Shown: positions 54,927 through 58,500 of the stretch, in pieces
How the letters are laid out: each line of letters begins with the position of its first letter
Numbering within the stretch: position 1 is the stretch's first letter
DNA from: Escherichia coli
Lineage (GTDB): Bacteria > Pseudomonadota > Gammaproteobacteria > Enterobacterales > Enterobacteriaceae
Length of the DNA stretch: 64,000 nucleotides
Strand: one strand, 5' to 3'
NCBI RefSeq assembly: GCF_003018255.1
Contig: NZ_CP027440.1
Made by a program: the position numbers and the translations under genes
The notes under the pieces: model-generated
Told to the model about the DNA's origin: nothing
Seen by the model: the letters and a program-made list of their open reading frames with translations, nothing else
Database searches by the model: none

Positions 54927-55588
54927 CCTCTCATCCGCTTATATCTTCGAATCGTCTCGTAAAATTTCTGTTCCATCTCAGTACCTTTGGGATGATGATC
55001 ATTCAATCCTCGCTTCCACCACCTATGATGTAATTCTTCATGAATAATAACATCTCTTAATGCTGCACGAGACGAAAAACTATTTTTACCAAACTGAGTT
55101 CCTTCCCAAAGTTTAGCAATCCCTGTTCGCATAAACGGATTGTATTGAGGGATATATGTTAGTTTAAGATATGCAAAATCTTCTTTAAGTATGGCTGTAA
55201 TTGCCTTATTTCTGGCTCTGGCCGTAGAACCTGTAACATGACCGAGATCAGAAACATAAGTCTGTGGCCCTCTAGAAAACTCGACTGTTTTATTAATTAT
55301 ACTAGTTATAGCTAATCCCAGCGGATCAACATACCCACACGGATTAGGCACATACCGGTAAGTCTGCTCACCCCCCAGCAACCCCAGCGGATCACTCACC
55401 AGGTACATCCCTGTTTCCGGCTCGTAATACCGGAACCGGTTATAGCACAACCCGGATTCCGCATCCCGCCACTGTCCTGCATACAGCAGGCCGGGGTCGG
55501 GGTCGGCTTCCGGGTCCAGCTCCCCGCGCGGGTCCGGGTAGCCGGTGTCTGCGGGCAGACTGAGTGCCAGCCCCCACAGGCTGGTTTG
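54917..55588 (-). CDS. Rhs C-terminal module: core end (DPLGL...DPLGL) plus toxin domain with HExxH motif
   Basis: Same frame as the rhs core after TGA; QTSLWGL...[36 protein letters not shown]...[11 protein letters not shown]... Confidence 0.6.
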   Translation of the reverse strand, partial: [223 protein letters not shown]

Positions 55589-58500
55589 TCACGGTCGCCA
55601 CACGGTTTTACCTTCACTGTTAAAGAGCATCAGCGGACGGCCCGTCAGGTCGCTCACCGCATGATTCGTCCGCGTCACCCACTGCGGGGCCACCGACGGA
55701 TGCGGCTGCCGTACCCGGCTGCACTGCTGGCTTATCAGCTCAAAGCCGTTAAACACCAGGTGCCGTACGCTGTACAGTTTATCATCGCGGTATTCCCGGA
55801 TTTCCGCAATATTGTCGCCGTCCCACAGGTACGTAAAACGGATTTTCTTCCGGTCGCAGCGTTTTTCCGTCCGCCTGCCGCTGGCGTCGTAGCGGTATTC
55901 CCACTGCTCACCCTGTGCGCTGCAATACCCGGTCAGCTGGTCACGGCTGTCCCACCGGAACCGCTCTGTTTCCGGGCGGTAGCCGTCACGGTGTCTGGTG
56001 CGGCTGACCATCCGGCCTGCGGCGTCATAGTCATACTGCGTGTTTCCGGCCTGTTTCAGCCGGTGGCCTCCGGCATACCGCTCAGTCTCTTCACTTATCC
56101 GGTGCCTGCCCGCAGACTGCGCCTTCAGGTAGCCGCAGCTGTCATAGCCATAAGTCTCATCGCCTTCGCCATAGCCCAGCCCGGTGCCTGAGGCTGTCAC
56201 CGCCGTGACCTGGCCGTTCCGGTCCAGCCGGTACTCCCGGCGTGTTTCCCGTCCGTAATCTTCCCGGCTGGTGACACCTGACACGTTACCCGCGCTGTCG
56301 TAACGGTACTCCCGTACCAGTGACGGAACCAGCCCGCCCCATGTGGCTTCTTCCGGAAAAAATCCGGCGCGCTGGCTGACAGGCTGGCCGGCTGCATTCC
56401 AGCCCTGCTCACAGGCAAAACCCCGGTTACTGTGCCGGAGCACTTCACGTCCTGCCTCATCACGGCTGAACGTCAGCGTCTCATCCCCCGGCAGGATAAC
56501 CTCCGTCAGTTCTCCGGCGGCGTTGTAGCGGTAGGTGGTTTTCAGCAGGGATTCATCGGGGTGTCTGTCGCGTTCATCTTCCGGTGGCAGGATACAGCGG
56601 ATGACGGTGTGTTCATCGGGGTAATGGTACTCAATGGCCCGTCGGCCCTGAGTGGTGACATTCACCCGCCCGCGTTCGTCATAGCCGGTGCGCTGTGATG
56701 TGCCGTCCGGGCTGAAGATACCCGTCAGCCTGCCGGATTTGTCATACGCATACTGCGTTTTGCCTTCCGGCGTGATGATTTCTGCCAGGCGGCCTGCGGC
56801 GTCCCGGCTGTAGAGGATGGTTTCCTCCAGGCCGTTAACCCTGGCGGTACACAGGCCATCGGCGTCATAGCGGTAACGCCAGGTCACGCCGCCCCAGTCA
56901 TGCTCTTCCGTCACCCGCCCACAGTTGTCGAGAAGATAACGGTATGACTCACCCTGCGGGTTGATGACTTCTGTCAGTTGCAGCGTGTCTTTATCATAGC
57001 GGTACTGCCAGCGGTGGCCTTCACCGTCCGTTCGCGCCACCGGCAAATCAAACGGGCCGTATTCCATTGTCCAGACAACGCCGTTACCGTCCGTGTACGC
57101 CAGCAGGTTGCCGTGGCGGTCATAGCGGAATCCTTCTGCGCCGGTTCCTGCCCGCTCAAGGCCGCTCAGTTTATGGTGCTGCTGCCACTGCAACCGCACT
57201 GACTGACCGCCGGGGCCGCGCATCTTCACCGGCAGGTCGTGACCACTGTATTCGGTGTGGTGTTCACGGCCCATCACGTCGGTGAGTGTTTCCGGCCGGT
57301 TGTGGTGGTCGTACTCTATGCCCAGACGCCGTTCATCCTGGCGGAATATCCCCGACAGCAGCCCCTGAGCGGTGTACGCCAGCCGGGTCTCTTCGCCCTG
57401 TGGCGATACCAGACTCACCGGCAGGCCGCGTTCATCGCACTGCTGTGTCCACGTCTGCCCGGCAGGGTCGGTGATGTTGCTGAGCAGGCCGCGCTCATCA
57501 TAGCGGTACAACCACACCGCGCCGTCTGCCGCCGTATAACGGCTTAACTGACCGTGTACGGCGTTGTATTCAAATTTCTCCACCCGTCCGGCAGGGGAGT
57601 GGCGGGCCAGCAGGTGATGGAATTCATCCCATTCATACGTGGTGGTGCTGCCGTCCGGCGCTTCTTCCCGCAGAATATTGCCGTCAGGATCATAGTAATA
57701 ACGGTGAATGCCCTTGCCGTCCGTCACGGTGGTGCAGCCGTCACTATAGTCCAGCGTGGCGTTGTAATAGCCGTCCGCCCCGGTGACATTCACGCACCGG
57801 CCCTGTTCATCGTAGGTGAAACGGCTCCACGTCTGGTCGTTATCGGACCAGCGGATGATCCGGTCCGCAGCGTCGTACTCATAAAACAGGTGGTAGTCCA
57901 GCCGCGCATCCGCTTCGGTCAGCCGCCCCCGCGCATCCTGTTCGTAGGTCGCCAGCGTCTGTATGCCGTTATCCGTGCGGTGAATGGCTTTCAGGTAGCC
58001 GCTGGCGTGGTACGTCAGTTTAAGCCGGATCCCGTCGGTGTGACTGACACCCGTGATGCGGTACTGGCTGTCGCGCTCAAACGTGATGCGGTTGCTGGCG
58101 GTGTCGCTCATCCCGCCCAGCATGTACATCCGGTCACCGGGGCTGTGTGCCAGGCGGTCATCATTGGTATCGTCAGTCACCGGGTGGCGCAGGCGCATTC
58201 CCGGAAAGGCGTCATAAAAGAAGCGGCTGCTCAGGGCATCACGGTCGAACAGCTCCAGGTAATCGTCGCGGCGGCGCAGGATATACTGGGCGTGATACGG
58301 GTTAACCGCCGTATCACTGTCTCCGTCGAAGGCAAAGTACAGCGTGGCTCCCTGGCTGATGATATCCACCCGGTTTCCCTGTTCACGCACCCAGGCGTAT
58401 TCGCTCCAGGAGTCGCTCCAGCCCACGCCCGTCAGGCCATGCAGTGGCAGTACAGAACTGTGGAAACGGGTGAAGGAGAGGGGGAGTGTCTGGCCCAGCG

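Follow-up and report, generated by a model that had tools for sequence, protein, structure and literature searches.

An in-frame stop codon in the gene of a secreted toxin can be a simple lesion or a device for making little of the toxin, and the rhs locus of the window (the whole 64,000-nucleotide stretch of Escherichia coli DNA analysed here) raises this question with a TGA present in both the main rhs gene and a downstream orphan rhs fragment. The original prediction left two readings side by side, an inherited nonsense mutation shared by both copies or a toxin tip produced by low-level readthrough that titrates its dose. We consider the first very probable in a modified form, namely that the TGA is a rare, lineage-restricted nonsense mutation spread between main gene and orphan by gene conversion, leaving a young pseudogene and a disarmed effector.

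An in-frame TGA ahead of the end of the Rhs core

The main rhs gene comprises the following features.

55592..59728 (-): main rhs open reading frame as terminated, 1,379 aa, with a class I prePAAR motif, PAAR, DUF6531 and RHS repeats
55589..55591 (-): in-frame TGA, codon 1380 of the main rhs gene, with CCG (Pro) before it and C (55588) after it
54917..55588 (-): same-frame continuation past the TGA, 223 sense codons and a stop
About 55379-55582 (-): Rhs-associated core, past the TGA
55379-55393 and 55313-55327 (-): two DPLGL motifs, 17 residues apart, past the TGA
About 54923-55246 (-): Tox-MPTase5 toxin domain with an HEELH motif, past the TGA

The main frame, read from 59728 to 55592, ends in LFNSEGKTVWRP followed directly by the stop (GKTVWRP-TGA), and both the TGA (55591..55589) and the C after it (55588) were found as predicted; the interval 55586-55591 originally given covers the TGA and the following codon, CAA. 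If the TGA were sense, the frame would encode 1,603 aa and close at the stop 54919..54917. The downstream frame had been taken for the end of the Rhs core, which holds well beyond chance: a match to NCBIfam TIGR03696 (Rhs_assc_core, E=1e-18) begins 3 residues past the TGA, and the alignment to NF041261 (RHS_core) extends across it. The 1,379-aa frame itself matches the Pfam families prePAAR_I (E=1.4e-4) and PAAR_motif (E=9e-10) and contains several RHS_repeat matches. DUF6531 is the N-terminal plug region and the RHS repeats are the beta-barrel shell of the main product. The locus has the architecture of a class I prePAAR Rhs effector of a type VI secretion system (T6SS), with a shell and a core that carries the PxxxxDPxGL ending, the core end and DPLGL motifs lying only past the TGA, so that shell, autoprotease and toxin do not share one uninterrupted frame.

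The orphan fragment and the neighbouring genes complete the array.

52557..54480 (-): orphan rhs fragment, with core homology to the main gene from ~54480 down to ~52972
53181..53183 (-): in-frame TGA of the orphan, codon and flanks identical to those of the main gene
Stop at 52557-52559 (-): end of the orphan frame past the TGA, which carries DPIGL/DPLGL and then a Tox-PL-2 (papain-fold) toxin
54504..54917 (-): putative cognate immunity gene of the main toxin, intact, corresponding to the "hypothetical protein" WP_073568922.1 of related genomes
52273..52554 (-): putative immunity gene of the orphan toxin, 93 aa, corresponding to WP_001561591.1 of related genomes
59748..60209 (-): gene for a DcrB-related protein, intact, in the position of the EagR chaperone of prePAAR effectors
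60237..62138 (-): vgrG, type VI secretion spike protein, 633 aa, intact
50746..51882 (-): ISAs1-family transposase, bordering the rhs array on the nfrB side

The orphan copy of the codon, with the same flanks, lies at 53183..53181, again as predicted. The vgrG gene, the DcrB-related gene and the small downstream ORF all match annotated genes in related genomes; the chaperone role of the DcrB-related protein and the immunity role of the small downstream ORFs are putative, being assigned by gene position alone.

The truncation point in the Rhs structure

In Rhs1 of P. laumondii, the barrel spans residues 420-1262 and the C-terminal aspartyl-protease plug residues 1263-1357 (PMC8636562). The stop of the main gene aligns to P1262 of this protein (7pq5) and thus falls at the boundary between shell and C-terminal plug, not inside the barrel, so that the main product would have neither plug nor autoprotease nor toxin. 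The plug is deeply embedded and seals the cocoon (PMC8636562, PMC8765631), and killing requires C-terminal autocleavage of Rhs (PMC8765631). The truncated effector has probably lost toxin delivery.

Such a clean cut invites the idea that the truncated prePAAR-PAAR-Rhs shell has been kept under selection, capping VgrG and supporting T6SS firing or other effectors with neither the cost of the toxin nor the risk of self-intoxication. The position of the truncation at the shell/plug boundary is in keeping with this, as are the intact vgrG and DcrB-related genes. Donato et al., in PNAS in 2020, reportedly found T6SS activity in Enterobacter cloacae to depend on the Rhs cage itself. Truncations of Rhs1 have further shown that the N-terminal prePAAR-PAAR region is enough for binding of EagR and VgrG (PMC8636562). 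However, a shell that lacks its sealing plug (PMC8636562, PMC8765631) may misfold or be degraded, and termination after proline can cause SsrA tagging (Hayes 2002, as cited in PMC7246954). There is, moreover, no evidence of selection on an allele that is a rare variant, and neutral pseudogenisation accounts for the same data, so that we regard a selected structural role as very unlikely.

The stop would be irrelevant to toxin production if the toxin tip and its immunity gene were expressed, in the manner of a toxin-antitoxin pair, from a promoter and start past the TGA. In Salmonella Typhimurium, a promoter (P2) in the DNA for ~36 residues ending in DPxGL drives low-level expression of main and orphan toxins, and P2-like sequences have been reported in E. 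coli (PMC7043789); the segment homologous to the P2 region here does fall past the TGA. However, a simple sigma-70 scan of the minus strand from the TGA to the DPLGL motifs returned no promoter-like site, and by-eye comparison shows a -35 region different from that of Salmonella P2. Expression of this kind, which we judge highly improbable, would in any case not deliver toxin to competitors and would leave the stop unexplained.

A glycine codon in intact homologues and a rare TGA allele

Comparison with intact rhs homologues, the check that had been proposed for this codon, gave a uniform answer: in every intact E. coli copy whose codon was read, just a handful out of 3,368 homologous places, the equivalent codon encodes Gly (GGG or GGA). 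It is GGG in the main genes of K99B and O157, and GGA in the O157 orphan and the main gene of JNE112863. The surrounding peptide, LFNSEGKTVWRP followed by Gly or the stop and then by QTSLWGL, is otherwise identical between intact and TGA copies. Given the glycine codon of the intact copies, one G-to-T change accounts for the stop.

The region is found at 3,368 places in 2,340 complete E. coli genomes, out of 5,426 searched. By contrast, the 46-nt TGA haplotype was recovered from just three of the 5,426, in six places, by a 46-mer search of a type that would miss TGA alleles on other haplotypes; two more 46-mers, with the TGA set on the two other common haplotypes, gave zero matches. The string marking the TGA allele is CGNCCGTGACAR. 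A 38-nt degenerate pattern of the TGA haplotype matched only two metagenome contigs. By these searches, the haplotype is confined to a single small lineage within E. coli. A protein identical to the 1,379-aa product is encoded on a single contig, and its 90% cluster has 12,802 members, those listed being mostly about 1,600-1,628 aa long.

An assembly error, which had been raised as a possible source of the stop, is ruled out by the recurrence of the TGA haplotype in three independently assembled complete genomes and two metagenome contigs.

Within this lineage, the stop is distributed unevenly among the copies. The two closest genomes, JNE112863 and JNE23-011 (99.4% over 8.3 kb), have an intact main gene of 1,601 aa and carry the TGA in the terminal orphan only, whereas in DETEC-S792 the main gene and every one of the three orphans have it, with an "internal stop" annotation on each. 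NCBI's PGAP labels the TGA copies of related genomes as "internal stop" pseudogenes. The presence of the TGA in every DETEC-S792 copy could reflect neutral homogenisation or selection.

Gene conversion between main gene and orphan

The identity of the two copies extends well beyond the codon and its immediate flanks.

55468..56078 (-): 611-bp tract of the main copy holding the TGA, 100% identical to orphan 53060-53670
53060..53670 (-): orphan partner of this tract

Just upstream of the block, main gene and orphan differ at 26 of 589 bp (4.4%), and the Poisson probability of zero differences over 611 bp is ~2e-12. Comparison of the main gene of the window with that of the JNE genomes also shows 12 differences, clustered between -109 and +32, at which the window main gene has the orphan-type haplotype, although it shares with the JNE main gene the toxin and most upstream main-type sites. 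A block of identity, diverged flanks and an allele unlike that of the sister genomes together mark a gene-conversion tract between main gene and orphan, and the two copies have an identical stop because the block around the TGA was homogenised between them. The inherited nonsense mutation of the original prediction is thereby supported but refined, to a homogenised block whose allele is confined to a small lineage.

Orphan fragments of rhs are as a rule not expressed, and it is through the core common to both that they and the main gene recombine (PMC3967940). Conversion from orphan to main gene is favoured, because the JNE main tract differs from the orphan type in the same way as main-type sequence does elsewhere, and also because a silent copy can carry a stop without selective consequence. 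In the flanks, three-way SNP patterns form clustered patches with no tree signal, the three lineages being star-like at this locus; the haplotype of the JNE main gene was found in the JNE strains alone, the next best match being 97.9%. Tract boundaries differ between strains.

Readthrough of the stop

The description of UGA-C as a leaky context agrees with published work: C at +4 after UGA is a documented weak termination signal in bacteria (PMC5289835). A proline in the P site weakens termination further, according to Hayes 2002 and Pierson 2016 as cited in PMC7246954, so that few if any of the termination contexts known in E. coli would be weaker than Pro-UGA-C. Premature TGA codons in E. 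coli K-12 reporters are read through at percent levels, more so under stress, mainly by insertion of Trp (PMC11126739). Trace readthrough by Trp-tRNA at the main TGA is therefore plausible as an incidental event; Trp at codon 1380 would give the peptide TVWRPWQTSLWGL.

It is a different matter whether this leakage has a function, with Trp-tRNA decoding Pro-UGA-C in a few percent of translations, the cell obtaining a low, possibly stress-tuned supply of toxin-bearing Rhs, and the allele being kept for that purpose. To the weak context (UGA with +4C, PMC5289835; slow release after a C-terminal Pro, PMC7246954) and the leaky K-12 reporters (PMC11126739) can be added the intact downstream ORF and putative immunity gene. 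Nevertheless, homologues in which the downstream frame is retained do not conserve the stop: Gly occupies the codon in all intact copies read, the TGA haplotype is confined to the three complete genomes mentioned above, and the nearest relatives have a sense codon in their main gene. An Rfam search (E<=10) of positions 55300-55750 detected no SECIS element, returning only two unrelated hits at chance level, and the 81 nt counted from the stop have a predicted fold whose stability does not exceed that of shuffled sequence (z=0.38), so that no stimulatory RNA came to light by either approach. The high K-12 rates have been ascribed to the unusual RF2 allele of that strain (PMC11126739) and may not hold here. 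Finally, the same stop is present in orphans not expected to be translated (PMC3967940), which hitch-hiking by conversion fits better. Together with the PGAP pseudogene calls, this leaves the proposed titration of toxin dose with no comparative support, and we hold functional readthrough to be very unlikely, while incidental readthrough is plausible. A search of the window for an opal suppressor tRNA found none, its sole tRNA being tRNA-Arg(tct).

Selenocysteine is another known reading of UGA in E. coli, and 5 nt past the stop begins a short hairpin (CCAGCCU/GGGCUGG). However, the Gly alleles carry this hairpin sequence without any change, its fold has no unusual stability, no SECIS family was matched and the homologues have Gly, not Cys. 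A selenoprotein gene is thus effectively refuted, and a selenocysteine codon shares with an assembly error a practically negligible probability.

A probable young pseudogene

We propose that a single-base change of a GGA Gly codon to TGA arose in the 3' part of the Rhs core, a stretch repeated in the main gene and in the silent downstream orphan toxin modules, whose repeated core ends recombine with one another. Non-reciprocal recombination would then have copied the haplotype block bearing the stop from one copy to another; in the source strain this block occupies the orphan as well as the main copy, which is the expressed one. Main-gene translation would normally terminate at codon 1380, the predicted product being a prePAAR-PAAR-Rhs shell devoid of the C-terminal plug/aspartyl autoprotease and of the Tox-MPTase5 toxin. 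Full-length protein, if made at all, would have no source but background near-cognate decoding at the weak Pro-UGA-C context, probably by Trp-tRNA and presumably in trace amounts.

As a counterpoint, the frames past the TGA are fully open in both copies and both putative immunity genes are intact. This fits a very recent lesion, and also fits continued use. A bolder variant of continued use would see the silent orphans as a reservoir of a "disarming" stop cassette, and the leaky Pro-UGA-C at the shell/plug junction as a reversible, recombination-switchable dimmer of a T6SS toxin; most of the protein made would then be PAAR-Rhs shell lacking the toxin, and a small armed fraction would respond to stress. 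We find this very doubtful. Were the leaky-stop reading true, it would represent a natural dose control of an interbacterial toxin by readthrough, but our results give no support for such selection.

Under the young-pseudogene reading, the main rhs gene calls for annotation as a pseudogene with an internal stop, in line with the PGAP labels in related genomes, and the Tox-MPTase5 toxin should be left out of any tally of effectors that the strain can deploy. More generally, the homology that allows an orphan toxin to be swapped into the main gene also lets null alleles built up in silent orphans enter the expressed gene.

Comparison with known systems

A close parallel is the STM0291/STM0292 locus of Salmonella Typhimurium (Koskiniemi et al. 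2014, PMC3967940), where the main rhs gene, at full length, is likewise followed by a displaced module of core end, toxin and immunity gene without start signals of its own. In both arrays, the copies share roughly 0.5-1.5 kb of core homology by way of which they recombine. The Salmonella recombination joined the orphan toxin to the main gene and so activated that toxin (PMC3967940), whereas here a short non-reciprocal patch appears to have moved a nonsense codon, leaving the toxin after the main gene unchanged, with inactivation as the outcome.

With the solved Rhs effectors (Rhs1; PMC8636562, PMC8765631), the locus has in common prePAAR, PAAR, an N-terminal plug, a YD-repeat barrel, an encapsulated toxin and a C-terminal aspartyl-protease plug with two DPLGL motifs 17 residues apart, as well as a vgrG and a gene in the chaperone position (DcrB-related here) directly upstream. 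It differs from solved Rhs1 in that the frame is broken at the barrel/plug junction (the equivalent of Rhs1 P1262), and the normal product would be without plug, autoprotease and toxin.

The recoding sites of E. coli that use UGA followed by C, at the prfB frameshift site and the fdhF selenocysteine codon, share with this stop the UGA-C combination, which is used where inefficient termination is needed (PMC5289835). These programmed sites, however, are conserved in homologues and have dedicated stimulators (a Shine-Dalgarno-like element with a slippery codon, or a SECIS hairpin), whereas the stop described here is a rare allele, replaced by Gly in homologues and with no stimulator detected. 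It is most probably an ordinary pseudogene lesion and not programmed readthrough.

Concerted evolution by gene conversion in general leaves the same marks as those seen at this locus, a block of perfect identity between paralogues, diverged flanks and strain-specific boundaries. Nothing sets the present case apart from the usual one except that the tract carries a null allele, which probably passed from a silent copy into an expressed one.

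An in-frame stop truncates the main Rhs effector

The rhs locus of the window lies on the minus strand, flanked by cusS and nfrB, and is arranged as follows:

62138..60237, minus strand: vgrG, first in locus order
60209..59748, minus strand: DcrB-related gene occupying the Eag chaperone position
starting at 59728, minus strand: main rhs ORF, ending ...LFNSEGKTVWRP-TGA
after main rhs, minus strand: small putative immunity gene
after this putative immunity gene, minus strand: orphan rhs fragment with its own small gene
50746-51882, minus strand: ISAs1 transposase, last in locus order and bordering the array

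The ISAs1-family transposase is intact in the window (378 aa), whereas the annotation of JNE112863, the closest genome, lists it as an 'internal stop' pseudogene; the annotated relatives also have a symE toxin remnant, which lies between the IS and the immunity gene of the orphan. The window also contains four tandem matches to Rfam naRNA4/CssrE (REP-type repeats; 33892-34269, plus strand, 100-bp spacing), STnc480 (11470-11536) and a tRNA-Arg(tct) (40825-40901).

The frame of main rhs, a type VI secretion effector gene, is interrupted at codon 1380 by a TGA (55591..55589) followed by C (55588), beyond which 223 further sense codons lead in frame to a stop at 54919..54917. The orphan, a displaced silent fragment, carries the identical codon and flanks (53183..53181), with the frame open to 52557. 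The original prediction, which had described this TGA in both copies and ascribed it to a nonsense mutation or to leaky readthrough, was right in every detail of the stop, only the minus strand being left unstated. The TGA is a real in-frame stop: three complete genomes, each independently assembled, share it with two metagenome contigs, which rules out an assembly error.

Besides many RHS repeats, the 1,379-aa terminated part has the Pfam domains prePAAR_I, PAAR_motif and DUF6531. The match to NCBIfam TIGR03696 (Rhs_assc_core, E=1e-18) begins 3 residues past the stop, the alignment to NF041261 (RHS_core) runs across it, and beyond it DPLGL occurs twice, 17 residues apart (from residues 1446 and 1468 if the stop is read through), the main toxin being Tox-MPTase5 (E=2e-29; HEELH motif) and the orphan toxin the papain-fold Tox-PL-2 (E=1e-22). 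Alignment to the solved Rhs1 of P. laumondii (7pq5, E=4e-46) places the stop at P1262; in Rhs1, residues 420-1262 form the barrel and 1263-1357 an embedded C-terminal aspartyl-protease plug, whose second DPLGL holds the catalytic Asp (PMC8636562). In P. protegens RhsA, the cocoon is sealed by the C-terminal protease domain and killing needs C-terminal cleavage (PMC8765631). Since the stop falls at the equivalent of P1262 and the core-end and toxin domains lie past it, the terminated product is a shell without plug, autoprotease and toxin. Such a toxin-less PAAR-Rhs shell could still act as a spike cap, the N-terminal region being enough for EagR and VgrG binding (PMC8636562), although without its embedded plug it may be less stable. 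It is conceivable that a promoter beyond the stop drives the toxin internally, in a TA-like manner, with the Salmonella P2-type promoter as a precedent (PMC7043789), but a simple promoter scan downstream of the stop found nothing.

A rare allele of a glycine codon

Among 5,426 complete genomes of E. coli, 2,340 have the 601-bp region that surrounds the stop, at 3,368 places in all; the codon was read directly in a few of these places. Every intact copy read has Gly (GGG in the main genes of K99B and O157:H7, GGA in the O157:H7 orphan and the JNE112863 main gene) within an otherwise identical flanking peptide, and one G-to-T change converts GGA to TGA. The 46-nt TGA haplotype (GTG TGG CGA CCG TGA CAA...) occurs at six places in three of the 5,426 genomes; TGA put on two other common haplotypes gave zero matches, in 46-mer searches that cover the tested flanking haplotypes only and would miss TGA on others. 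A degenerate TGA pattern matched only two short metagenome contigs (L006, ERZ772863 NODE-13677, and L007, ERZ824978 NODE-35705). The second departs from both window toxins ~290 nt after its start, so at least one further sequence is also found behind the TGA block. Only one recorded contig encodes the exact 1,379-aa product, the product's 90% cluster has 12,802 members (those listed mostly ~1,600-1,628 aa), and the NCBI pipeline PGAP annotates TGA-bearing copies as 'internal stop' pseudogenes. A young nonsense mutation, from Gly to stop, best explains the TGA; frames that are still open beyond it and immunity genes that are intact are to be expected of a very recent lesion.

Readthrough of the stop

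The suspicion of a leaky stop was justified as regards context: C at +4 after UGA is a documented poor termination signal in bacteria (PMC5289835), and a C-terminal proline, according to work cited in PMC7246954 (Hayes 2002, Pierson 2016), slows release and can provoke SsrA tagging. In K-12 reporters, readthrough of premature TGA reaches percent levels, inserts Trp in most cases and increases under stress; the authors partly attribute it to the inefficient K-12 RF2 allele (PMC11126739). Given this weak Pro-UGA-C context and the K-12 readthrough, traces of full-length Rhs with Trp1380 are plausible. Programmed readthrough, by contrast, finds no comparative hallmarks of recoding at the main rhs TGA, a rare allele that is not conserved among homologues. 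No Rfam or SECIS family matched around the stop, the RNA downstream folds no more stably than its shuffled versions, Gly alleles share unaltered the sequence that forms the small hairpin past the stop, and the same TGA is present in orphan fragments, for which translation is not expected. We consider it very improbable that the stop serves as a leaky dimmer of toxin dose.

Gene conversion between main and orphan rhs

JNE112863 and JNE23-011, the nearest genomes to the window (99.4% over 8.3 kb), have an intact main gene (1,601 aa); in both, the TGA is confined to the terminal orphan, the one with the papain-fold toxin. In the related strain DETEC-S792 (L005, 9573-22829), the TGA haplotype is present in main rhs and all three orphan modules, the nonsense block being homogenised over the four-copy array. 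Window main matches the orphan at every base of a 611-bp block (55468-56078 vs 53060-53670; 100% identity), and the 589 bp directly upstream contain 26 differing sites (4.4%), a rate at which zero differences in the block would have a Poisson probability of ~2e-12. Counted from the TGA, 12 clustered differences between window main and JNE main lie between -109 and +32, and window main has the orphan-type haplotype there; the two main genes are further set apart by a 6-bp duplication and by three sites (up to +141), in all of which window main agrees with DETEC-S792 orphan 1. Since this orphan-type patch sits in a main gene that has kept the JNE toxin and most upstream main-type sites, the TGA block is a short non-reciprocal patch, a sign of gene conversion rather than of a main-orphan fusion. 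The duplication, an in-frame tandem GACCCC GACCCC (...EADPDPGL...) at ~55494-55506 in main and ~53086-53098 in the orphan, 85-90 nt downstream of each window TGA, is shared with DETEC-S792 orphan 1, whereas DETEC-S792 main and the JNE copies, main and orphan, lack it; this second marker also points to an orphan-1-like donor for the window main tract.

Transfer from orphan to main is favoured on two grounds: in a fragment that is silent, a stop is neutral, and the JNE main tract differs from the orphan type in the way that main-type sequence also does in other places. The reverse direction could also apply, because the flanks yielded no tree signal to polarise the conversion and the JNE main tract is unique to the JNE strains. 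Two SNP clusters unique to the window relative to JNE112863 and DETEC-S792, one inside rhs (57075-57098, 6 SNPs in 24 bp) and one near the cusS end (63111-63278, 11 SNPs in ~170 bp), look like further small recombination patches.

We consider it likely that a Gly-to-stop block has been homogenised among rhs core repeats via gene conversion and that the TGA disarms the main Rhs effector in this strain. Recombination between main and orphan rhs via the common core has been shown experimentally, orphans being normally unexpressed (PMC3967940).
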